From assembly GCA_038858525.1 (NCBI GenBank), contig JAWCFL010000011.1, forward strand, positions 25,284-57,283: a stretch of DNA of 32,000 nucleotides, written 5' to 3'. The first letter of the stretch is position 1, and every line of letters starts with the position of its first letter. The notes under the pieces are model-generated. The model was not told the DNA's origin and made no database searches. It saw nothing but the letters and a program-made list of their open reading frames with translations. This document shows, piece after piece, positions 9,032-22,826 of the stretch. Made by a program: the position numbers and the translations under genes. This DNA is from Candidatus Jordarchaeales archaeon. GTDB lineage: Archaea; Asgardarchaeota; Jordiarchaeia; Jordiarchaeales; Freyrarchaeaceae.

Positions 9032-10586
9032 CATTAAAAAACTGCTGGAAAGAGCTGAGGAAGATTATGAAGCGGCTTGGGTTGAGTCGCGTGAGCTCCT
9101 CAAACTAGAGGGGAGATACTTCAGACTTAAGCCTCTTGGAAGAAGCAACGAAATAATGAATTTCATAGAAGAAGTGAGAAAAACGCTAGTAGAAATGGGC
9201 TTCGAGGAAGTGGTCTTGCCGGTGATCGTTGACGAGAGCGAGGTGCGTAAGGAATATGGCCCAGAGGCTACTATAATTCTGGATAGAGTGTTCTACCTGG
9301 CGGGGTTACCTAGACCCGATGTGGGGCTAAGCAAAGAGGATGCCGAGCGTATTAAGGAGCTGGTCCCATCGTTTAACGAATTCGAGAAGCTACGGGAGAT
9401 TCTCAGAAAGTATAAAAAGAGAAAGATAGAAGCAGACGATTTAGTTGAAACAATGGTTAACGAATTGTCGTTGCAAGAAGAGGACGCGACGAGAATAATA
9501 GACACCGTTTTCCATGCGTTCAAGAACCTTACCCCTGTCCCGTCGCCTCTTACTCTTAGGTCACACATGACGGCACTATGGTTTCCGGTTCTTAGCGCGA
9601 TTTACAAGTATAAGTGGAAAGAGTTACCAGTTCAACTTTTCACCGTTGGACAAAAATTTAGAAGAGAGCAGAAAATTGATCCAACACACCTTTACAGCTC
9701 GTACACTGCATCGTTCGTGATAATGACCGAAGAAATAAGTTTGGAGGATGGTAAGAGTATTGTTCAAGAATTTCTTGGGAGACTAGGGTTCTCGAAGGCG
9801 GAGTTTAGACTTAAGAAGGCGACTTCGAAGTATTATGCTCCCCAAACAGAGTTCGAGGTCTTCATACAGCATCCGGAAACTAGTGAGTGGATAGAAGTTG
9901 GAGACTGCGGTTTTTACTCTCCCGTCAGCCTTGCAAAATATGACATAGACGTTCCCGTATTTAACGCAGGTTTCGGCATTGAAAGGTTTGTCATGATAAG
10001 AACTGGAGAAACTGATGTGCGGCGGCTAACGTACCCCTACTTCTACAGACGTGACATCTACTCCGACGAAGAAATAGCTGAGGGGATATGCTACGCGGAG
10101 AAGCCAGAGACAGAGCTTGGAGAGGAAATAATGAACTCGATAATTAGCGTAGCTGAGGAGCACATGCATGCTGACGCACCCTGCAAGTTCACCGCTTGGA
10201 AAGGTAAAATTGATAGAGGAGAACTAACCGTGACTGTTTTCGAGGAGGAAAAGGGAGTTAAACTACTCGGCCCGGCGGCACTAAATGTAATATGCATTCA
10301 CGAAGGGAACATTTTAGGTCTTCCGCCATCCGAGGTGAGGGGAACCGTAACTAAGTTAAGGTACCTGGATGGTGTAGCAGCACTTTTCGCCAGAAAAGTC
10401 GAAAAAGAAATTTTAGAGGAAGGAAAGCGTGAGGTTAGTATGAAAGTGAGAATGGCGAAGAAGCCTTCGGATGTTAATATATACTTGAGTGAACAGGTTA
10501 GGCGCTACATTTCCTCAAAAAACAAGAGGATAGACATTAGAGGGCCTGTATTCATAAGCTTAGCGGCTTCACTAAATGACTCATAA
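9021..10586 (+). CDS. sepS: O-phosphoserine--tRNA(Cys) ligase (SepRS)
   Basis: 521 aa. It is collinear with remembered methanogen SepRS: MRF(N/D)IKK..., FYLAGLPRPDVGL, LTLRSHMT, FRREQ, SKYYAPQTEFEV, FGIERF, YPYFY. Overlaps the upstream gene by 11 nt. Confidence 0.9.
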   Translation: MRFNIKKLLERAEEDYEAAWVESRELLKLEGRYFRLKPLGRSNEIMNFIEEVRKTLVEMGFEEVVLPVIVDESEVRKEYGPEATIILDRVFYLAGLPRPDVGLSKEDAERIKELVPSFNEFEKLREILRKYKKRKIEADDLVETMVNELSLQEEDATRIIDTVFHAFKNLTPVPSPLTLRSHMTALWFPVLSAIYKYKWKELPVQLFTVGQKFRREQKIDPTHLYSSYTASFVIMTEEISLEDGKSIVQEFLGRLGFSKAEFRLKKATSKYYAPQTEFEVFIQHPETSEWIEVGDCGFYSPVSLAKYDIDVPVFNAGFGIERFVMIRTGETDVRRLTYPYFYRRDIYSDEEIAEGICYAEKPETELGEEIMNSIISVAEEHMHADAPCKFTAWKGKIDRGELTVTVFEEEKGVKLLGPAALNVICIHEGNILGLPPSEVRGTVTKLRYLDGVAALFARKVEKEILEEGKREVSMKVRMAKKPSDVNIYLSEQVRRYISSKNKRIDIRGPVFISLAASLNDS

Positions 10587-14445: not shown

Positions 14446-16761
14446 GTGAAGAAAAGATGCGAAATACTGTGCAGCGGAGTAGTTCAAGGAGTCGGCATGC
14501 GGCCTTTCGTGTACCGGATAGCTGTCAAAAACAGCTTAACAGGCTACGTCCTCAACTTGGGGGATGCCGGAGTAAAAATAGTCGTTGAAGGAGAAGAGGA
14601 AGACATTAAAAGGTTTATGATGGAGCTAAAGGAGAAAAAACCCCCACTGGCAAAGTTTGAGAAGATAAGGACGAAGTGGGGAAAGGCACGCGGAGAGTTC
14701 GATACGTTCACCATAGAGAAGAGTAGCAGTGACAGGATACTCGAAAGTTCCTACATACCTCCAGACGTGGCGATCTGCAATAACTGCATACAGGACATGT
14801 TGAACCCTAATGATAGGCATTACAAGTATGCGTTCACATGCTGCGCGGACTGCGGTCCAAGGTATACATCAATAATAGGTTTACCCTACGATAGAGAACT
14901 AACAACGATGCGAGACTTCCCTCTGTGCCCTCACTGCATGGAGGAATACATGAACCCTATGGATAGGAGATACCACGCTCAAGGAATATGCTGCCCTATC
15001 TGCGGCCCAAAACTCACACTCCACGCGAAAAACGGTGAGCTCATAGATTGCAACAACCCAATAGCGGAGGCAGCCAGATTAATAAATGAGGGGGCCATAG
15101 TGGCTGTGAAGGGTATAGGGGGAAGCCACCTAGCGGCGCTCACAACTGATGACGAATGCGTACTTAAACTAAGGCAGAGGAAAAGAGACAGGAAGTATAA
15201 GCCCTTCGCTGTCATGTCTCTGAGCCTCAACGAAGTAAGAAAGTATGCAGAAGTTAGTCAAAAAGAAGAGGAGGTTCTAACATCCTTCAGACGACCCATA
15301 GTGCTACTCAGGAAAAAAGAGGACTTTCCGCTTTCTAAGTGGATTAGCCCCGGACTACACAACATAGGTGTGATGCTGCCATACTCGGGACTGCACATAC
15401 TCTTGCTGCAAGAGGTCACAGACCCCGCTGTCATAATGACCAGCGGAAACGCGTCAGGAAAGCCCATAGCAGCAAGCAACGAGGAAATCATCACCCACCT
15501 TAGCGACTTAGCAGATTACTTCTTGCTCCACAACAGAGTGATATACCAGAGGTGTGACGACTCTGTTGTCAAGATAGTAAATGGAAAAACCAAGCTGATA
15601 CGCAGGTCAAGAGGCTATGTGCCAGAACCAATAGAGACGCCGATACCGTACAGGGGAAAAGGAATACTGGCAGTCGGACCAGAACTAACAGTAACAGTAA
15701 CCGTTATGAAGGGAAGTAGGTGCTATGCCAGTCAACACATAGGCGACGTCTCAGGCGACCTCGACATGATGGAGTTCCACGAAAGCGTCACGACACACCT
15801 GCTAAAACTTTTAAACGTAAATCCTGAAGCCTTGGCATGTGATCTGCACCCTCAATTCATGACGACCAAGATAGCAGAAGAATACGCTGAAAAATGGCAG
15901 GTCCCGCTGGTGAGGGTTCAGCACCATCATGCCCATGCGGCTGCACTAAAAGCGGAGCACAAATTGGATGAACCCATAGTCTGCATAGCGTGTGACGGCG
16001 TCGGCTACGGGCCAGATGGAACTATATGGGGTGGAGAAGTGCTACTCTCAGACTATGAGTCGAGCGAGAGACTCGGGCACCTTGCCCCCCAACTTATGCC
16101 CGGAGGAGACCAAGCCACTAAGTACCCAATAAGAATGGCGGCATCCATTCTCAGCCGTGTTTTGTCCGACAGTGAACTGAGGGATATTCTAACATCAAAA
16201 TACATTGACGGGTTTAAATACGGGGAAAAAGAGGTGGAAGTTGTCCTAAAGATGATAAGAGACGCTAAGGGGCCTCTCTCAACCAGTACAGGGCGCGTCT
16301 TAGACGCTATAGCAGCCCTGCTAGGAATATGCATGGAGAAAACATATCAAGGAGAGCCAGCGATGAGGCTTGAGGCAGCGGCGGCAAAAGGCAAACCAAC
16401 CCTGAAAATAGAGCCCAAAATAAGTCGCTCAGACGGACGATACGTACTTGACACGTCCCAAATACTTTCTGAAGTGCTACAGGCGTTAGGAAAACATAGA
16501 GTAGAGGACTTAGCGGCATCCGCCCAGCACGCTATAGCAATAGGATTAGCGGACATCGCCGTGAACGTGGCACAAGAGGAAAATGTGAGAACCGTTGGGT
16601 TTACAGGAGGCGTAGCATACAACGAAGCCATAACAAAAACCATAAGAAAGCACGTCGAAAAAAACGGGCTAGTTTTTATACAGCACTCAGTTATACCTCC
16701 AGGCGACGCTGGAGTGAGCATAGGGCAAGCGATAGTGGCGGCGTGCAGATTATTAGGTTAG
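14446..16761 (+). CDS. hypF: [NiFe]-hydrogenase maturation carbamoyltransferase HypF
   Basis: 771 aa. It has an acylphosphatase domain (VQGVGMRPFVYRIA), two Zn-finger pairs (CNNC...CCADCGPRYT; CPHC...CCPICGP), then a YrdC-like and a Kae1-like domain. Confidence 0.95.
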   Translation: MKKRCEILCSGVVQGVGMRPFVYRIAVKNSLTGYVLNLGDAGVKIVVEGEEEDIKRFMMELKEKKPPLAKFEKIRTKWGKARGEFDTFTIEKSSSDRILESSYIPPDVAICNNCIQDMLNPNDRHYKYAFTCCADCGPRYTSIIGLPYDRELTTMRDFPLCPHCMEEYMNPMDRRYHAQGICCPICGPKLTLHAKNGELIDCNNPIAEAARLINEGAIVAVKGIGGSHLAALTTDDECVLKLRQRKRDRKYKPFAVMSLSLNEVRKYAEVSQKEEEVLTSFRRPIVLLRKKEDFPLSKWISPGLHNIGVMLPYSGLHILLLQEVTDPAVIMTSGNASGKPIAASNEEIITHLSDLADYFLLHNRVIYQRCDDSVVKIVNGKTKLIRRSRGYVPEPIETPIPYRGKGILAVGPELTVTVTVMKGSRCYASQHIGDVSGDLDMMEFHESVTTHLLKLLNVNPEALACDLHPQFMTTKIAEEYAEKWQVPLVRVQHHHAHAAALKAEHKLDEPIVCIACDGVGYGPDGTIWGGEVLLSDYESSERLGHLAPQLMPGGDQATKYPIRMAASILSRVLSDSELRDILTSKYIDGFKYGEKEVEVVLKMIRDAKGPLSTSTGRVLDAIAALLGICMEKTYQGEPAMRLEAAAAKGKPTLKIEPKISRSDGRYVLDTSQILSEVLQALGKHRVEDLAASAQHAIAIGLADIAVNVAQEENVRTVGFTGGVAYNEAITKTIRKHVEKNGLVFIQHSVIPPGDAGVSIGQAIVAACRLLG

Positions 16762-17267
16762 AAGTTGCCAGCAACCATAAACGGCTTAGCATACTCCTCA
16801 ACCAACTGAATTAACTGCTCCTCTAGCTTTTTAAGATGGGGACTTGATTCCCCATAATCCAACCTCAACCTTTCGCGATAACTCGATATGAGGCTTGAAA
16901 GCTCAATGTAAGGCGCCAAGTTTGGAGTGTCCAGTAGCCCAACGTAACCTAGAAGGATTAACGTGTAAATTGACTTCACAACGTTCCTACAAGCCTGCTC
17001 GAGTACACGTCTAAAGGCGCCCTTTGTAACCCCGCGGGCAAGACGTGGCCTCCGCCCTCTCGCATTCCTAGAAGCTCTCAGGAGACCTTTGAGGGAATAC
17101 TGAACTCCTCTTCCAGCGCTTTCATCTAGAAGAAAATGGATGACCAGCGTTTCAAACTGTATACGGGTGAGGTTAGACGAAGAGAGAAGGCGAGAAACAA
17201 TAGAGTCGCCGAGGAGGCGACGCAGAAAATCCTCTAATTCGTTCAGTTCGACGTCTGCTCTGTCCAT
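16758..17267 (-). CDS. Hypothetical protein with sigma70-region-4/LuxR-like HTH (last gene of ATPase-RHH-HTH operon)
   Basis: 169 aa. LTRIQFETLVIHFLL...GVTKGAFRRVLEQACRNVVKSI has a helix-turn-helix pattern. ATG lies 2 nt after the upstream stop, preceded by GAAGGTGG. The 3' end overlaps the hypF stop by 4 nt. Confidence 0.5.
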   Translation of the reverse strand: MDRADVELNELEDFLRRLLGDSIVSRLLSSSNLTRIQFETLVIHFLLDESAGRGVQYSLKGLLRASRNARGRRPRLARGVTKGAFRRVLEQACRNVVKSIYTLILLGYVGLLDTPNLAPYIELSSLISSYRERLRLDYGESSPHLKKLEEQLIQLVEEYAKPFMVAGNF

Positions 17268-17269
17268 CT

Positions 17270-17701
17270 TCAGCCACCTTCACTTTTCAATTTGCCAAGC
17301 GTAGTGTACTGCTCCTCTAGGAGCTGGAATAATCCAAGTTCCTTCAGCTCTAACTCATCAAAAACTGTTTTCATCTTCTCCAGTATGGCAAGCCTGCAGA
17401 ATACTGTTGCTCCACGCTCCCCAAACTTTTTCTTGAGCAGGGAGATGAAGCTACTAGGAAGCCTTACGTTGAAGTTTTGATCAAGCCGAGTCTTAGGGTC
17501 CTTCCTCACATAGACTATTTTCTCCACTACCTGGACGGGTAGAGGCGACGTGACCTTCTCATCCACCAGAGATAATGAGGCCGCTGGCTGAGGATGAGCC
17601 ACGGCACCTTCCTCATAGTTAAGAGGAGCAGGAGGCTGTGAGATTTGCCCATACTTTTCCTGCTCCTTGACTTTCTTCGCTATGTCAACCAGCCTCGTCA
17701 T
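17270..17701 (-). CDS. Hypothetical ribbon-helix-helix (CopG/Arc/ParG-like) DNA-binding protein
   Basis: 143 aa. A low-complexity N-half (QPPAPLNYEEGAVAHPQPAA) is followed by a beta-alpha-alpha pattern (FNVRLPSSFISLLKKKFGERGATVFCRLAILEKM). ATG is 5 nt after GGGTGAT. Confidence 0.55.
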   Translation of the reverse strand: MTRLVDIAKKVKEQEKYGQISQPPAPLNYEEGAVAHPQPAASLSLVDEKVTSPLPVQVVEKIVYVRKDPKTRLDQNFNVRLPSSFISLLKKKFGERGATVFCRLAILEKMKTVFDELELKELGLFQLLEEQYTTLGKLKSEGG

Positions 17702-17713
17702 CTTATATCACCC

Positions 17714-17752
17714 GCATCGATGCGCGACATCGATATCTGAAAGCGATATCAG
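17714..17752. promoter_or_regulatory. GATATC-core site cluster in the ATPase-RHH intergenic gap
   Basis: GCATCGATGC palindrome (17714-17723), then CGATATCT (GATATC 17732-17737) and CGATATCA (17745-17750). These fill the 52-nt gap between the two genes. Confidence 0.5.
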
Positions 17753-17753
17753 A

Positions 17754-18989
17754 CTACTCTGGAACCTCCTCGATGCATGGTAAAGCATCCACAAGGGCTC
17801 CATCGATCACAGGGCTTCCTCCATCCTTGAACCTGTTAGCAGCAACGAACACTGCCTGGTTGCAAAGCATACGAAGGTCACGCCCCACACCCATAGACTT
17901 TCGTTTCAAAGCAGGAACCGCATCCTCGGTGAAGGGGTGTATTTCAAAAGAGGACTCGTCAAACTCCTTAAGGCGGCCGCTAGCCCAATAAAGCCTCCTG
18001 CCGATAAATTCCCTGACGCCGCGCTCATCCAATGGTTCAAGCTCGATCTCCCAACATCTATCATAGAGGTGAGGGACGCCTTCCTTGAGACCTATAGCAT
18101 GAGTCTTCGTTCCAGTCAAAACGAGCATGCATATCATCTGATCCTCGTCGCCCTCCTCCGCAGCCCGCTTAATCGCATTAATCTCCCCCTCGTCAAGCTT
18201 CATTTTTTTAAGCTTAAGGAACCGCTTGAATTCATCTTCTTCTTCAACTACGAACCGCTTGGCGTCCTTCAGCGTTAAGTCGCCGACCTCCTTGATCTTA
18301 ATAAAGACCTCAACGTCGTTCTCGCCGAAATCATCTATGAATATCAACGTAAGATATCCACTCAAAAGATATCGAAGCATGATATCATACTTGACCAGCA
18401 CGTAAATGTCTTCAGCATTGGCCGATCGAGAATATGGAACCCTAAGTTTCTTCGCCAAAACCTCAGCCATCTGCCTCACATACAGCTTACTCTGAGACAC
18501 CATCACGGGATAGAAACGATACTCAGGGTCACCCTGCCTAGAAAGCTCTAGAAGGTCCCCGTAAATCAGCTCGAGAAGCGTCGTTTTACCCATGCCGGGA
18601 AACTCGCTCGTTATCAGTATATGCCGCTCCCTAGCCTTAATGTAATCATCGATCTCAACTATTACATCATGAGGAGCCACGAACAGTTCAGGGTCGCTTA
18701 ACCTCACACTCGAAAACGGGTTCCACCTCCACCCGAAGAAGGAGTAGTATGCATTTCTAATCTCAGCCACCGAAGGGTAGAGACGCCCAACAGCACCCAT
18801 ACGCTCCACACAACCACCTCCGACATCCGATATCGACAGCCGAAAAAGATACCAGAATCCAGATATCAAAACCAGAAAACGATACGCAAAATCTAAAGAG
18901 AAAAAACATCGTAATACGTAGAGAACACCAACAGAATACGAGAAATACGCGGGAAGGCCAGCTGCGATTGAAAAGGAACACGAGCTCAA
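17754..18989 (-). CDS. AAA+ P-loop ATPase, ExeA/AAA_22- and ORC-like, with a charged insertion
   Basis: FFGWRWNPFSS..DPELFV lead-in, Walker A EFPGMGKTTLLELI, Walker B LTLIFIDDFGE, LVLTGT, ELEPL and GVGRDLRMLCNQAV. The first 63 codons are hydrophobic and composition-driven, so an alternative start is ATG 18800 (MGAVGRLYP) behind GGAGGTGG. Confidence 0.7.
   Translation of the reverse strand: MSSCSFSIAAGLPAYFSYSVGVLYVLRCFFSLDFAYRFLVLISGFWYLFRLSISDVGGGCVERMGAVGRLYPSVAEIRNAYYSFFGWRWNPFSSVRLSDPELFVAPHDVIVEIDDYIKARERHILITSEFPGMGKTTLLELIYGDLLELSRQGDPEYRFYPVMVSQSKLYVRQMAEVLAKKLRVPYSRSANAEDIYVLVKYDIMLRYLLSGYLTLIFIDDFGENDVEVFIKIKEVGDLTLKDAKRFVVEEEDEFKRFLKLKKMKLDEGEINAIKRAAEEGDEDQMICMLVLTGTKTHAIGLKEGVPHLYDRCWEIELEPLDERGVREFIGRRLYWASGRLKEFDESSFEIHPFTEDAVPALKRKSMGVGRDLRMLCNQAVFVAANRFKDGGSPVIDGALVDALPCIEEVPE
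18353..18386. repeat. Three GATATC sites within 34 bp inside the ATPase coding sequence
   Basis: GATATC at 18353, 18368 and 18381. Confidence 0.4.
18821..18867. promoter_or_regulatory. GATATC-core sites upstream of the likely ATPase start
   Basis: CGACATCCGATATCGAC (GATATC 18829-18834) and CAGATATCA (18862-18867), just upstream of the alternative ATG at 18800. Confidence 0.45.
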
Positions 18990-19103
18990 GAAACACTAAG
19001 AGAGCTAAACGAGAACCAAGAGCGACGTAGGTTTACAAAAAAGTATACCCACAGGGAGCCTAAAGCAGAAGAGAACATCAAACGAAAAGGATAAATACCA
19101 GAA

Positions 19104-19124
19104 ATATGGAGGGAATACCTCCAT
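19104..19124 (-). terminator. Hairpin followed by a T-rich tract (candidate terminator of the 19184 gene)
   Basis: TATGGAGG-GAATA-CCTCCATA is a perfect 8-bp stem. On the minus strand it is followed by TTTCTGGTATTTATCCTTTTCGTTTG. Confidence 0.35.
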
Positions 19125-19161
19125 AAATAAGAAAGACGAAGAGCACAACAGTATTAGTTAC

Positions 19162-19181
19162 TTTGGAACATGTGTTCCAAA
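19162..19181. repeat. 20-bp palindrome TTTGGAACATGTGTTCCAAA (9-2-9), 2 nt past a stop codon
   Basis: The arms TTTGGAACA/TGTTCCAAA are perfect reverse complements. It sits immediately 3' of the 19184 gene on the minus strand. Confidence 0.6.
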
Positions 19182-19183
19182 AA

Positions 19184-19546
19184 TCACGACTTTTTGCTCT
19201 CCTTAAGCGCAGCATAAGAAGTAAGGAGGTCCACCCAAGATTTGAGAAAACCCTTGGCGAACCCCGCCCTCTCAGGAAGGTTTGAGGAGAAAACTTGCGC
19301 CAGAGAATCCAGATACTTCGCGTATCTCCTAGCGTCTTCTGCTGAGAGACCATTCATTAGTGAAACTATTAGGGAAATCTGGTTAAGTTTTTCAAGACCT
19401 GCAAGCCAACCTCGCCAGGCCAGCTCAACCCATTTATCTTTAAACCGTGATTCCTCCAAAGCTGCTTTAGCGATTTCAATGGCCTTCTTGTGATCGCCTT
19501 CAGCCAATGCTTTAACGAATTCTTCAACTTCACTCAAAACAACCAC
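19184..19546 (-). CDS. Hypothetical all-helical protein
   Basis: 120 aa with helical heptad-like sequence and no family recognised. GTG start about 15 nt downstream of a TTTTTATATATTT TATA-like box (19558-19570, minus strand), consistent with a near-leaderless mRNA. Confidence 0.45.
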   Translation of the reverse strand: MVVLSEVEEFVKALAEGDHKKAIEIAKAALEESRFKDKWVELAWRGWLAGLEKLNQISLIVSLMNGLSAEDARRYAKYLDSLAQVFSSNLPERAGFAKGFLKSWVDLLTSYAALKESKKS

Positions 19547-19620
19547 CCTGCTTAATTAAATATATAAAAAGACGACTAATTAAGATTTCCAGCAAAATGA
19601 CGATTTCAGCAATCGAAAAT

Positions 19621-19645
19621 GGATGTCGTAATCAGATATCGATAC
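19621..19645. promoter_or_regulatory. GATATC-core site upstream of the 19546 gene
   Basis: GGATGTCGTAATCAGATATCGATAC. Its reverse complement shares ATCGATATCTGA with 17729-17740 and CGACATCC with 18821-18828. Confidence 0.45.
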
Positions 19646-19848
19646 TTGAATTGCATTTTTTATTTTTGTTCAGTGCATGAAGTGCGACAAGCACCCCTTC
19701 GTTTCTACTGTAACAGGTAAACTTATAAATCACTAAGCTAAACTTGAGCTTTTTATACAAAAAACTTATATCTTCTAAGTCCCAAGTATTTTGGGGGAGA
19801 GTTTTAATTTTAAAAGTTTAATTAATAAACTTAAGAGAGTTTTACTTT

Positions 19849-19876
19849 TTCCAGTTGAAACAGTGGGGTGGGTGGG
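19849..19876 (+). promoter_or_regulatory. Origin recognition box (ORB-A): dyad plus G-string
   Basis: TTCCAGTTGAAACAGTGGGGTGGGTGGG, compared with the archaeal ORB pattern TTCCAGTGGAAAC...GGGG. Confidence 0.75.
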
Positions 19877-19890
19877 TTTCCTTCTTTTAT

Positions 19891-19910
19891 TTTGGAACAC
19901 ATGTTCTAAA
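19891..19910. repeat. Second copy of the 20-bp palindrome (inverted, 19/20)
   Basis: TTTGGAACACATGTTCTAAA. Its reverse complement differs from the 19162 copy at one base. It overlaps the stop codon (19906-19908) of the 19906 gene. Confidence 0.6.
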
Positions 19911-20193
19911 TGTTTTCTTCCTCTACAACTACAAAAACTCGGCACTTAACAATATCCTTGTATTTCTTGAAGAAAGCATTGAAGACTTCTGCGTGTTCAT
20001 CTTGAACTAGTATTGCGCTATCTCCTGCCCTGTCGCAACCATAGAAGTCCACAAGGCCTAATTTTTGCCCCTTTAATGTTTTTCCTTCCTTGTTTTTCCA
20101 TTTGTAGGCGTATCCGAAGAGTTCCTTGAAGAATTTCACCCTGCGCGGGTTACTCGAATGTTCCGCCTTTACGTCGTAGACGTATATTCTCAA
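19906..20193 (-). CDS. Hypothetical small protein, possible Cas2/VapD-like ferredoxin fold
   Basis: 95 aa. TTG start 6 nt after GGAGGG. MRIYVYDV...NPRRVKFFKELFGY...SAILVQDEHAEVFNAFFKKY..VKCRVFVVV suggests a beta-alpha-beta-beta-alpha-beta pattern with an Asp at the end of strand 1. The assignment is tentative. Confidence 0.45.
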   Translation of the reverse strand: MRIYVYDVKAEHSSNPRRVKFFKELFGYAYKWKNKEGKTLKGQKLGLVDFYGCDRAGDSAILVQDEHAEVFNAFFKKYKDIVKCRVFVVVEEENI

Positions 20194-20270
20194 AGTTTTC
20201 CCTCCATCAATACGTTGCAGCCATTCGTCTTTGAAGACTTGTATTTTCGTTGTCTTTTTGTGGTCAATAG

Positions 20271-20639
20271 CTTAACATGTTAACACAGTGTTAACATAGC
20301 CGTTTTGAGTTGTTAACACGTTGTTTTTGCTATGAATAATGCAAATTATCTTAGTTAAAAATTGACCCCTTTATTTCAACTGCAACATTTTTTTCGATAT
20401 TTTTCTCTTTCCTTTTCGTGTTAACACGGTTTGTTAACCTTTATTTAGAAAAAACAATGGAAAATTGTTTTTTTGAAGATTTACCGCTTTTTATTTCAAT
20501 TTTTCTTGTTAATACTTTTTAAAAATTCTCTTTGTCAAAAGATGGCGTATTTTTTCCTTTTTTTGTTCTTTTCGTGTTCGTCACGTTAACAAATTTACAC
20601 ATTATTTCTCTTTGTTTTTAACGCGTTGTTTTGTTAACG
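20271..20639. repeat. Array of TGTTAACA palindromes (GTTAAC core)
   Basis: Exact TGTTAACA at 20278, 20289, 20311 and 20419 (the last within the perfect 12-mer CGTGTTAACACG, 20417-20428). 7/8 copies at 20432, 20507, 20584 and 20632. Confidence 0.7.
20366..20385 (-). promoter_or_regulatory. Origin recognition box (inverted copy of the ORB-A sub-type)
   Basis: The minus strand reads TTGCAGTTGAAATAAAGGGG, which is 16/20 identical to ORB-A including the GGGG string. Confidence 0.6.
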
Positions 20640-20972
20640 TATTGCGTGTTTTAGGTGAACCATTTCCCCCTTTAGAAAATAACGTTTTTTTGCTGGCTTC
20701 AAAGTTTTTATGGACTCTTCTTTTAGCTTATCGTAGAAAGCGGCATATGTTCTGTTTTTCAGAGGGATTGAGCTGCGGGTTAATGTTCAAGTGTAAAGTG
20801 TTTGGTGTTGGCTCCTGAAAGCCCCTGAGGTTGTATTTTTGTGGGTGGAATGCATTAGTCTTGCAGTTTGATTATTCTGCTTTTTATGTGTTGCTGGTTG
20901 GAGTTGTTAAGGGTGTTTTTCGGGTGTAATAGATAGACATATATATTTACGCGTGTAAGTTTAACTTACCTC
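20386..20972. other. AT-rich, strongly T-skewed non-coding core (candidate duplex unwinding region)
   Basis: Dense T-runs on the plus strand and no credible ORF. It is flanked by the inverted ORB at 20366-20385 and ORB-B at 20973-21002. Confidence 0.55.
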
Positions 20973-21002
20973 GTTTCCAGTGGAAGGTGTGCTGGTTGGG
21001 GG
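20973..21002 (+). promoter_or_regulatory. Origin recognition box (ORB-B)
   Basis: GTTTCCAGTGGAAG-GTGTGCTGGTT-GGGGG: dyad plus G-string. Confidence 0.75.
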
Positions 21003-21466
21003 CGAAGCGCTACAAGATCGAGATAGTTGATGCCGAGCGCAACGTGAAGGCTACTTTGACTATTGAGGGTGATGTTTCCCCCCAGCTGGCGGCATCTCTT
21101 GTGGAGGAGCTTTCCGAGAAACTGTCTGAGGGCGGAGTGGCGGAGGAGGCACCTGCTGGGTTTGAGGCTTCCGAGGTTGACGCCGAGCTCCCCGACACTG
21201 AAAGTCTCTCGATGAAGGATAAAATTGAACTTGTACTGCTAAAGTATTTCCAGTATGGGTGGTTTACTTCTGGTGATGTTCATGAGCAGTTTACTCGGGT
21301 TTTTGGTGAGACCTCTCTAAGCGTGGTTTCAACATACTTGGCGAGGCTGCGTAGTGAGGGGCTCTTGGAGCGTAAGGGAACGAAAAAGCAGTATTATTAC
21401 CGGCTTAAGGAAAGTGGCCGGCTCAGGGCTTCTAGGCTTAGCGAGCTTCTTCAGCTTCTTCCGTGA
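20987..21466 (+). CDS. Hypothetical winged-helix DNA-binding protein with acidic N-terminal half, embedded in oriC
   Basis: 159 aa. The C-terminal FTSGDVHEQFTRVFGETSLSVVSTYLARLRSEGLLERKGTKKQYYYRL is a wHTH pattern. Start is GTG 20987 or TTG 20996, both inside an ORB whose GGAAGGTG doubles as the SD. Confidence 0.6.
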   Translation: MCWLGAKRYKIEIVDAERNVKATLTIEGDVSPQLAASLVEELSEKLSEGGVAEEAPAGFEASEVDAELPDTESLSMKDKIELVLLKYFQYGWFTSGDVHEQFTRVFGETSLSVVSTYLARLRSEGLLERKGTKKQYYYRLKESGRLRASRLSELLQLLP

Positions 21467-21487
21467 AGTTGCTTCTCGACCGAGTGT

Positions 21488-21500
21488 GTTTCCAGTGTAA
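21488..21500 (+). promoter_or_regulatory. mini-ORB (ORB-C)
   Basis: GTTTCCAGTGTAA, 12/13 identical to the dyads at 20973 and 21545, with no G-string. Confidence 0.55.
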
Positions 21501-21515
21501 TATTAATGGATATAT

Positions 21516-22826
21516 TTGCCGGAAGTTAAGCATTATTCACCTTTGTTTCCAGTGGAAGTAGGAAAAGTGGTGGTTTGTTTGGGTGAACGTTCTCTTGAGG
21601 CGCTTTTTGAAAGGTTTCTCTCAACCAAGATCTTCAAGAATCGTGACGTGTTGAGTCATACTTATGTTCCTGACGAGTTACCTCACCGTGACGAGCAAAT
21701 AGAGAAGGTTGGGTTAATTCTCGCCTCAGCTCTTAAGGGCGGCACTCCTTCGAACGTTTTCATTTATGGAAAGACGGGTACAGGTAAGACTGCTGTCGTA
21801 CGCTTCGTTCTTAAGCACCTTGTTGCTAAGTGTCACGAGCTGAATGTGCCTGCTCCCTTACCCGCTTACCTTAACTGTAGAATTGTAAACACTAATTATC
21901 GTGTTCTGGCTCGGCTTTGCTCCTACTTAGGTGTCGAGGTTCCCTTTACGGGTCTGCCTACCGATGAGGTTTACAGTAGGTTTAGGGACGTGCTTGATAG
22001 CAGGGACGTGTTGATGATAATCGTGCTCGACGAGGTTGAACGGTTAGTTGAGCGGGACGGTAGTAACGTCCTCTACGACCTAACTAGGATGAATCACACT
22101 GTTCTTAAGCGGGCGCGCGTCAGCATAATAGGCATCACGAATGACTTAACGTTCAAGGATAACCTTGATCCTAGAGTGCTGAGTAGCTTAGGGGAAGAAG
22201 AGCTAGTTTTCCCGCCTTACACTGCCGCTGAGCTCAGGGACATTCTTTGGCAGAGGGCTCAGCTTGCCTTCAGAGAGGGCGCTCTTGAAGGTCCAGGAGT
22301 CATCAATCTTTGCGCAGCTATAGCCGCTAAGGAGCACGGGGACGCCCGTCGCGCCCTAGACTTGCTTAGAGTCGCTGGCGAGATAGCTGAGCGGGAGGGC
22401 GCAGAAAAGGTTTCCGAAGAGCATGTGAGAGCCGCTCAACACGTCATCGAGCGAGATCACCTGGTTGAGGCACTGAGAACTCTCCCTATGCATTCTAAGC
22501 TTGTACTTTACACTATTTTTGAGTTGACTAAGCAGGGAAGGGGTAAAGCTAGGACCGGGGACATATACAACTACTACTTGAACGTTTGCAGGCGTCTACA
22601 TGTTGAGCCGTTAACTCAGAGGCGGGTTAGTAGCCTTATAAATGAGCTTGACATGCTGGGTGTCGTTGCGGCTCATCTTAAAAGCAGAGGACGCCATGGG
22701 CTCTCGAAAGAAGTGAAACTCAACGTTTCAGTAAATCAAGTCAAACAAGTCTTAGAGGAGGATTCATTCATAAAGAAGCTTTCATCCAGTGACTCGTCTC
22801 CTCTCTTTGAGGCTAGTCCCCAGTAA
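21516..22826 (+). CDS. cdc6: Orc1/Cdc6 replication initiator
   Basis: IFKNRDVLSHTYVPDELPHRDEQIEKV, Walker A IYGKTGTGKTA, Walker B IIVLDEVE, GDARRALDLLRVAGEIAE and a C-terminal wH (LTQRRVSSLINELDMLGVV). The true start is probably GTG 21567/21570 or TTG 21579 (after GGTGG), downstream of the ORB at 21545-21558. Confidence 0.93.
   Translation: MPEVKHYSPLFPVEVGKVVVCLGERSLEALFERFLSTKIFKNRDVLSHTYVPDELPHRDEQIEKVGLILASALKGGTPSNVFIYGKTGTGKTAVVRFVLKHLVAKCHELNVPAPLPAYLNCRIVNTNYRVLARLCSYLGVEVPFTGLPTDEVYSRFRDVLDSRDVLMIIVLDEVERLVERDGSNVLYDLTRMNHTVLKRARVSIIGITNDLTFKDNLDPRVLSSLGEEELVFPPYTAAELRDILWQRAQLAFREGALEGPGVINLCAAIAAKEHGDARRALDLLRVAGEIAEREGAEKVSEEHVRAAQHVIERDHLVEALRTLPMHSKLVLYTIFELTKQGRGKARTGDIYNYYLNVCRRLHVEPLTQRRVSSLINELDMLGVVAAHLKSRGRHGLSKEVKLNVSVNQVKQVLEEDSFIKKLSSSDSSPLFEASPQ
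21545..21558 (+). promoter_or_regulatory. mini-ORB (ORB-D) overlapping the cdc6 5' region
   Basis: GTTTCCAGTGGAAG, identical to the ORB-B dyad. It lies about 30 nt downstream of a TATA-like ATATATTT (21509-21516) and upstream of the likely cdc6 start. Confidence 0.7.

Follow-up and report, generated by a model that had tools for sequence, protein, structure and literature searches.

In a window of 32,000 nt (C11:25284-57283 of a 2.09-Mb Freyarchaeia (Asgard) assembly in 63 contigs), exact copies of the hexamer GATATC are concentrated in a 1.9-kb stretch at an orphan operon on the minus strand, which encodes an AAA+ ATPase, a 143-aa protein and a 169-aa all-helical protein. The sites are real, unique to this place in the genome, conserved, phased and tied to the operon, and they very probably form a functional cis-element of it. 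To explain them, we propose that the GATATC hexamers and their one-mismatch variants would be phased docking sites, with a step of about 13 bp, for a dimeric small DNA-binding protein of the same operon, and that they would serve both as operators and as an array on the flank of a replication origin. We give this explanation as a whole a probability of roughly 40%.

An exact word search of the window places GATATC at 17732, 17745, 18353, 18368, 18381, 18829, 18862 and 19635, i.e., at precisely the eight positions that a first-pass annotation of this DNA had listed within 17714-19645, whereas its estimate of about four copies in the rest of the window rises to six on recount (2874, 4300, 4702, 28010, 30113 and 30756). 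Over the whole genome, the word occurs 277 times in 2,092,542 bases (0.13 per kb) with an observed/expected ratio of 0.87 (order-3 Markov model) or 0.95 (order-4) and is therefore neither avoided nor favoured. This comparison of the genome-wide count with a Markov expectation had been suggested along with the sites and comes out in their favour, i.e., the motif density elsewhere is about 30-fold below that of the 1.9-kb stretch. The latter holds eight copies versus 0.26 expected (Poisson P ~4e-10, or ~3e-6 with a rough scan correction), while the second-densest 1.9-kb stretch of the genome holds three. Likewise, four of the five GATATC pairs in the genome that are at most 40 bp apart fall within this stretch.

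When one mismatch is allowed, 23 sites are found in 2.1 kb compared to 7.1 expected. The one-mismatch sites prolong the arrays by a 13-bp step (e.g., 18327, 18340, 18353, 18368, 18381), such that short arrays with this step emerge, with the exact sites at their core. The sole other close pair of GATATC sites in the genome (C8:14700-14717) consists of TTGATATCG twice with a 12-bp step and lies just upstream of a gene for a PadR-like regulator; it may serve as operator of this regulator itself or belong, as an outlier, to the sites of the same binder.

Within the stretch, a first cluster (17704..17750) lies in the gap that separates the ATPase stop (17754) from the 143-aa start (17701). It comprises TATATC at 17704, GACATC at 17726 and the GATATC pair at 17732 and 17745 (13-bp step), and a pair or array at this position is also present in the loci L001, L002, L003 and L005 as well as in the same-genus genomes. 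Another cluster (18822..18867) is located just upstream of the ATPase start and is made up of GACATC at 18822, GATATC at 18829, GATACC at 18848 and GATATC at 18862. Here, the start codon initially assumed (ATG 18800) has to be replaced by GTG 18809, which has a Shine-Dalgarno sequence (GGAGGTG), since the homologues begin with MER-; an extension of the open reading frame (ORF) further upstream to TTG 18989 finds no support from homologues. Three of the positions upstream of the ATPase carry GATATC or a one-mismatch variant in every same-genus genome, i.e., the sites undergo turnover, and the sister family shows a site pair and one more site at the equivalent place.

The next cluster (19584..19640) lies upstream of the gene for a 120-aa helical protein (19184..19546, minus strand), which is found in the window's family only, and at a distance of about 65 bp from the first of the origin recognition boxes (ORBs) described below. 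It contains GATTTC at 19584 and 19602, GATGTC at 19622 and GATATC at 19635, and an equivalent site precedes the orthologous 117-aa gene in L001. The clusters are further connected by longer shared contexts, both of which had been reported before and are reproduced here: positions 17729-17740 are the reverse complement of 19633-19644, and CGACATCC at 18821-18828 recurs as an inverted copy at 19621-19628. Altogether, five of the eight exact sites are placed 20-90 bp upstream of start codons.

The other three are part of a five-unit lattice within the ATPase ORF (18327..18386), 420-480 nt into the gene, which is composed of GAAATC at 18327, AATATC at 18340 and GATATC at 18353, 18368 and 18381 with steps of 13, 13, 15 and 13 bp. 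All four genomes of the genus retain this lattice, which is missing in the sister genus. There, Arg-Tyr-Leu is encoded by CGT TAC CTT instead of the CGA TAT CTT of the window's genus, and Asp-Ile by GAC ATT instead of GAT ATC. Given that the same residues are encoded by other codons in the sister genus, two of the exact intragenic sites were made by paired synonymous changes. Synonymous recoding with local codon usage generates at least three sites in the ATPase ORF in 0.27% of the trials (P = 0.0027) and three sites within 30 nt in 0.1% (P = 0.001).

With regard to conservation, the sites recur at the same places in the orthologous loci of four same-genus genomes, of the sister genus and of the sister family, which was the outcome that the first-pass annotation had named as a check of its proposal. 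Six Freyarchaeia loci share the gene order PolD small subunit, cdc6, winged-helix gene, long ORB-bearing spacer, ATPase, small partner, 169/182-aa gene, hypF and HTH-CBS (helix-turn-helix). GATATC is kept upstream of the ATPase and between ATPase and partner and, in the window's family, also upstream of the 120-aa gene. Of ten genomes sampled from the order, nine carry the ATPase gene as a single copy; inheritance of the operon is vertical, and its synteny is conserved.

In the sister family, the pattern is much enlarged, i.e., its 13-kb loci contain 23-29 GATATC sites. For the complete genome CP147778.1 (3.58 Mb), the genome-wide count of 888 gives an expectation of 3.2 sites for the 13-kb locus (1.636-1.649 Mb), in which 29 are found, and the excess is limited to about 1.636-1.654 Mb. 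About 27 of the roughly 31 sites between 1,636,680 and 1,651,626 are intergenic, though 73% of this DNA is coding, and all six GATATC-N7-GATATC pairs of the genome belong to this locus. Site-to-site distances in the sister family peak at 13, 26-27, 39-41, 54 and 68 bp, which corresponds to a lattice of about 13.4 bp. Sites are located upstream of both cdc6 and the ATPase, one GATATC precedes the gene of the 169-aa family, and in two species two or three phased sites lie in about 100 bp (96 bp where there are three) between the convergent stops of the PolD small-subunit gene and cdc6. Sites between convergent stop codons, just like those inside the ATPase ORF, cannot be promoter operators.

The ATPase gene (17754..18809, minus strand) encodes 351 aa when started at GTG 18809. 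Its Walker A motif (GMGKT), its Walker B motif (LIFIDDFGE) and its candidate sensor and arginine residues are invariant in the homologue alignment, K72 and D156/D157 among the invariant positions. Close homologues (61-94% identity) are found in Freyarchaeia (Asgard) assemblies only, and a profile search of 1.8 billion representative proteins returned just 28 relatives. The predicted structure, with a predicted local distance difference test score (pLDDT) of 70, is matched best by Foldseek to archaeal ORC2/Cdc6 (ORC2 E 3.5e-8), TnsC (E ~1e-6) and MuB, with E-values from 3.5e-8 to 1e-4, and the neighbours of the protein in a language model (Atlas) carry AAA_22. Pfam itself reports no AAA_22 match for the window's ATPase, and the distant orthologue P0017 scores 26.4 bits versus a cut-off of 27. 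The ATPase combines both Walker motifs with a fold match to the AAA+ initiator clade (AAA_22). A Cdc6_C winged helix is not found by Pfam, and other matches (NB-ARC, mad8 of PADLOC) stay below threshold.

None of the orphan proteins could be assigned to a family in Pfam, NCBIfam, PADLOC or PHROGs, and PDB-sequence profile searches with the ATPase, the 143-aa and the 169-aa protein returned nothing meaningful. The 143-aa gene (17270..17701, minus strand) starts 52 bp past the ATPase stop on the same strand, and this arrangement is found in every orthologous locus examined. Its product shows a conserved N-terminal tail, a variable linker and a C-terminal domain resembling a ribbon-helix-helix (RHH) fold (strand NFNVR, helix, helix). 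The assignment to RHH is weak. Among the language-model neighbours of the protein are McdB, DUF5388, RHH_3 and CB_ParB_C adaptors, a weak lead towards the partition cassettes discussed below. The 169-aa protein (16758..17267, minus strand) is conserved with the operon across Asgard lineages; its predicted fold (mean pLDDT 73) has no significant match in the PDB, and a helix-turn-helix of sigma-70 region 4 or Tfx type is only a lead from language-model features.

To relate protein and sites, we modelled four copies of residues 58-143 of the 143-aa protein with a 36-bp duplex (17722-17757), for which the tool gives a score and no verdict, as it does for DNA complexes in general. The model scores 0.53, whereas three shuffled DNAs give 0.10, 0.23 and 0.40 and an unrelated protein gives 0.07; its protein chains have a mean pLDDT of 77. 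DNA contacts are predicted at bases 9-16 and 22-29, which cover the hexamers at bases 11-16 and 24-29, while residues 72-80 (the predicted strand) and 90-103 make the contacts on the protein side. The model is thus consistent with, and no proof of, a placement of the protein on the two hexamers.

Outside Freyarchaeia, a 300-genome sample of the phylum contains distant, single-copy orthologues of the ATPase (28% identity) in other Asgard families, i.e., 69 of the 76 genomes of one family and 8 of 11 in a second one have the gene, whereas it was not found in most of the others. In these loci a small protein follows the ATPase and the 169-aa family is nearby, and GATATC is not enriched. Instead, two loci of one family, L014 (GCA_021498085.1) and L035, show GTAWTAC heptads with a 9-11-bp step around the operon. 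In L014, these are GTATTAC and GTAATAC, 11 of the 14 copies in the locus lie within 2.1 kb around the operon, and a non-coding stretch of about 950 bp (9353-10304) downstream of the Thor-type RHH gene is full of heptads in direct and inverted order. Arrays of this type are kept in a genome of 74% identity. In three more genomes of this family (G238, G262, G292), 7 of 13, 7 of 9 and 13 of 22 genome-wide tandem-heptad matches fall within 1.3-2 kb of the ATPase gene, while in L032 and L036 only few sites flank the operon. A heptad-filled non-coding stretch like that of L014 (1-2 kb) is also seen in G292 (C47:45839-47831); in G238, G262 and G292, such a stretch accounts for over half of all tandem-heptad matches in the genome.

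The small partner in L014, which is the positional counterpart of the 143-aa protein, is recognized by Pfam RHH_1 (23.2 bits, cut-off 20.5). Between the lineages, the ATPase and the 169-aa protein can be aligned, whereas the small partner is changed beyond recognition. The partner has thus changed where the repeated word has changed, which is expected of a specificity determinant. As a side observation, hypF adjoins the module of ATPase, small partner and 169-aa protein in L014 and L017 (not in L032), even without an adjacent cdc6. Taken with the rarity of the word elsewhere and its conservation, this co-variation with the operon lends computational support to the initial suggestion of a shared operator or centromere-like set for the adjacent proteins.

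In the window, the operon is flanked by hypF (14446-16761) on one side and, on the other, by an AT-rich stretch (GC 0.35), the winged-helix gene (20987-21466), cdc6 (TTG 21516, possibly with a later start, to 22826) and the gene for the PolD small subunit. We predict an origin of replication (oriC, 19702..21558) in this region based on full ORBs near 19702 (minus), 19849 (plus) and 20374 (minus), mini-ORBs at 20973, 21488 and 21545, and an AT-rich core. In each of three genomes (that of the window, one of the same genus and a complete one of the sister family), a strict pattern (ORB word plus G-string) finds no match outside this locus, and the reversed control gives 0 matches; the single match in the window's genome is the ORB at 19849. 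The GATATC cluster is therefore on the immediate flank of the only sequence-predicted origin of Orc1/Cdc6 type. We rejected the possibility that the GATATC sites are themselves ORBs, given that they lack a core of the TTCCAGTGGAAA type and a G-string and that canonical ORBs are separately present. In a search of papers on origins of Freyarchaeia and on ORBs of Asgard archaea, neither the locus nor the arrays turned up.

We also related the locus to the GC skew of CP147778.1, sampled coarsely over the genome. The mean skew is +0.04 over 0-1.54 Mb and -0.04 over 1.74-3.40 Mb and, since it comes without a bias in gene orientation, it is of the replication type. The switch from plus to minus is near 1.66-1.70 Mb, i.e., 20-40 kb from the locus; local skew over 120 kb is too noisy to place it. 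The only full ORBs and all three cdc6 paralogues of this genome are at 1.637-1.684 Mb, and no ORB-like word is found near position 1. The authors of the genome assigned the replichores from skew alone, with no mention of cdc6 (PMC11291895). The evidence from ORBs and cdc6 bears on the location of the origin in the published complete Freyarchaeia genome.

Based on these data, we propose the following mechanism. The sites just upstream of the ATPase, 143-aa and 120-aa starts would act as operators by which the operon regulates itself. On the regular arrays, many dimers would come together in a higher-order nucleoprotein complex that flanks the replication origin, and the ATPase with its Orc/Cdc6/TnsC-like fold would work on this complex of dimers and array. 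The binder is probably the 143-aa tailed RHH-like protein (17270-17701). Its identity, the coupling to the ATPase and the biological role are what we infer from the locus, and a role beyond plain autoregulation may exist, at somewhat less than even odds.

The layout, i.e., an NTPase gene, a gene for a putative centromere-binding protein and a repeat array, resembles that of a partition cassette, without the locus being a member of a known one. Two features of partition loci are seen here, namely a gene for a small predicted DNA-binding protein directly downstream on the same strand and iterated short repeats beside the operon that are essentially unique in the replicon. Type Ib cassettes (ParF-ParG-parH of TP228, delta-omega of pSM19035) consist of an NTPase followed by a small binder that forms dimers and has a flexible tail at its N-terminus, and their flanking arrays double as operator; in delta-omega of pSM19035, the units are 7-bp heptads in direct and inverted order. 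The Asgard loci are alike in gene order, in the arrays that flank the operon and in units of 6-7 bp in mixed orientation. They differ in the class of the ATPase and in being chromosomal and vertically inherited in Asgard archaea; furthermore, a contact between tail and ATPase is without model support here and the RHH fold is unconfirmed by sequence methods.

SegAB of Sulfolobales is similar in that it is likewise a two-gene archaeal chromosomal operon with an ATPase followed by a small DNA-binding protein, which is site-specific in the case of SegB and predicted to be so here. SegB sites are short palindromes concentrated near segAB, many of them intragenic, and SegB compacts and loops DNA (PMC12284271, PMC8682754). 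In contrast, SegA is a ParA-type Walker ATPase while the protein described here is an initiator-clade AAA+ with an Orc/Cdc6/TnsC-like fold, and the GATATC sites form strict 13-bp-phased arrays that abut an ORB origin.

Extending the proposal over both lineages, the loci of Freyarchaeia and those of Thorarchaeia type could represent an undescribed Asgard machine for partition or origin organisation, with an ORC/TnsC-like ATPase in place of ParA, a tailed RHH-like reader of lineage-specific phased arrays (GATATC with 13 bp, GTAWTAC with 9-11 bp) and, in Freyarchaeia, a position beside the only ORB/cdc6 origin. We consider this extended version rather doubtful at present. If true, it would add a new class of NTPase to DNA-segregation systems and would tie ATPases of the origin-recognition type to the handling of chromosomes in the lineage from which eukaryotes arose. 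Asgard archaea are the closest prokaryotic relatives of eukaryotes and, to our knowledge, nothing is known experimentally about their chromosome organisation or segregation. The cassette at this locus is compact and vertically inherited, its cis-element is obvious, and beside the origin it has a motor candidate of the ORC/Cdc6 lineage. Even if it is read more modestly, i.e., as an autoregulated operon with unusual phased operators, biochemical work can start from a well-defined probe of 36 bp and three small proteins.

Several observations weigh against phased docking sites with a role at the origin. First, the array in the window is small, such that a plain operator would explain much of it (five of the eight exact sites are at ordinary operator positions). 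With regard to the proposed binder, residues 55-143 of the 143-aa protein have no Pfam match at E-values up to 1, its PDB profile matches include no RHH protein, and hhalign detects no profile similarity between the Freyarchaeia partner and the Thor-type RHH partners (E 0.28). One shuffled-DNA control of the complex model reaches a score as high as 0.40, in a setting where the score carries no verdict, and the complex model of ATPase and partner scores 0.14, below the mark of 0.32, which gives no support and is yet not counterevidence. Furthermore, the NTPase is of none of the classes that define par loci (ParA/Walker, ParM/actin, TubZ/tubulin), its Walker A being GMGKT and not the deviant KGGxxK, and we know of no partition system that uses an AAA+ ATPase.

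The link to the origin is weakened as well. Operon and cdc6 are not neighbours in the other lineages, where cdc6 is 35 kb away in G245 and absent within 8 kb in L014 and L017, and the polarity of the skew near the sister-family locus is that of a terminus by the bacterial convention. The published labels of origin and terminus may be swapped, or else this lineage has a C-rich leading strand. The polarity leaves the site observation itself unaffected, but it limits the label 'origin-proximal'.

The main rival is a pure operator set, i.e., one protein of the operon autoregulates the ATPase operon and a few neighbours (cdc6 in the sister family) while the sites have no structural or segregation role. 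Besides the distances of five exact sites to start codons, this is suggested by the sister-family sites upstream of cdc6 and the ATPase and by the few flanking sites in L032 and L036, and it agrees with the only precedent from archaea that has been published for a word of this kind, namely the aCcr1-box of small RHH repressors (PMC9976878). This box, known from Sulfolobales and their viruses, resembles the GTAWTAC of the Thor-type operons. On the other hand, aCcr1 is a small stand-alone repressor of a dispersed regulon without partner ATPase, phased arrays or clustering at one locus, and the word in the window is GATATC. Operators alone do not explain the three phased sites in 96 bp between convergent stops, the intragenic five-unit lattice partly built by synonymous changes, the roughly 27 intergenic sites that follow a strict 13-bp lattice across 15 kb and the 950-bp non-coding stretch full of heptads in L014. 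We therefore regard a pure operator set as somewhat unlikely, albeit as the strongest competitor.

Another reading is that the binder differs from the 143-aa protein, i.e., that the sites are read by the 169-aa protein (16758-17267) or by the winged-helix protein (20987-21466). The former is co-inherited with the operon across lineages, shows the language-model features of a sigma-70 region 4 or Tfx-type helix-turn-helix mentioned above and has a site upstream of its gene in the sister family, while the 143-aa protein is without a sequence-level RHH signature. Its suspected helix-turn-helix (GV[TS]xxAFxRxLxQA), however, is nearly unchanged between lineages with different words, whereas the small partner is fully changed. 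The missing PDB match of its predicted fold, the lack of any GATATC near the winged-helix gene in the window and the placement of the 143-aa protein on the hexamers in the DNA model also speak against such a reader, which we consider unlikely.

Of similarly low probability is a replication-control module, in which an Orc-like ATPase without its own winged helix and a small binder form an auxiliary initiator or a factor for helicase loading or licensing, with the repeats as iterons. Arrays beside an initiator gene are the classic iteron layout, and the Freyarchaeia arrays abut the ORB-bearing origin and reach the region upstream of cdc6. In addition, the ATPase fold comes nearest to those of archaeal ORC2/Cdc6, TnsC and MuB, i.e., of proteins that form assemblies on DNA. 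The locus likewise recalls the Orc1/Cdc6-ORB system in that a repeated, putatively protein-bound element is found at an origin beside the gene of an Orc-like AAA+ protein. Nevertheless, GATATC is off the ORB consensus, and the true G-string ORBs and the winged-helix Cdc6 are separate elements at a distance of 0.1-3 kb, i.e., canonical ORBs and Orc1/Cdc6 are already available at the locus. Moreover, no AT-rich unwinding element is found between the GATATC clusters of the window, and in other lineages operon and array are away from cdc6 with no ORB nearby.

A role in methylation timing is very improbable. Here, an EcoRV-type methylase would modify GATATC, and the hemimethylated word would be read after replication, as is Dam-modified GATC by SeqA at oriC of E. 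coli, to which a palindromic word clustered beside an origin would fit. M.EcoRV-type enzymes are in the Dam-like D12 class. No match to this class of methyltransferases is found in the window's genome and a sub-threshold one in CP147778.1, and the words of the other lineages, GTATTAC and GTAATAC, are heptads not compatible with a palindrome. PacBio data of a Freyarchaeia genome show five N4-methylcytosine motifs and no N6-methyladenine motif (PMC11529989), which sets the locus further apart from a Dam/SeqA-type cluster.

Finally, chance, composition or foreign DNA, for which nothing more than the small absolute number of sites in the window can be cited, is refuted by the scan-corrected P of ~3e-6, the unbiased word, the conservation across genera and the vertical inheritance. 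We also rejected restriction avoidance (the word is unbiased genome-wide and the operon is syntenic across the order) and a toxin-antitoxin or defence island (no significant PADLOC match, a single-copy gene and synteny across the order).

Some further elements were observed in the neighbourhood of the sites. The ATPase is preceded by a 383-bp tract (18801-19183) whose plus strand is strongly purine-rich and which contains a box, GGTTTACAAAAAAGTATACC, that is kept in all four genomes of the genus. A search with Rfam over the whole window yields no RNA family; the tract is therefore no known RNA. It harbours seven RATACS words in a single orientation (18848..19120, plus strand) compared to 0.24 expected at the genome rate, and none of 5000 shuffles reaches seven (0/5000). 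These words are possibly weak or ancestral-type sites.

A near-perfect 20-bp palindrome of the type TTGGAACA-N-TGTTCCAA is located at 19162-19182 and 19890-19910, i.e., just past the stops of the 120-aa gene and of a 95-aa gene. One copy is the inverse of the other, and the copy at 19162-19182 recurs in every same-genus genome; the element could be a terminator or a protein-binding site. The 95-aa gene (19906-20193) lies between inverted full ORBs. Its product is conserved in G007 (same genus) and G071 (sister genus), with 61-70% identity, which marks the reading frame as a genuine gene within the origin region. By eye, the protein recalls Cas2/VapD, which is a lead only, and there are no cas genes nearby. 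The origin core also contains repeated palindromes of the TGTTAACA type at 20271-20640, a third repeated word that is distinct from both the ORBs and GATATC.

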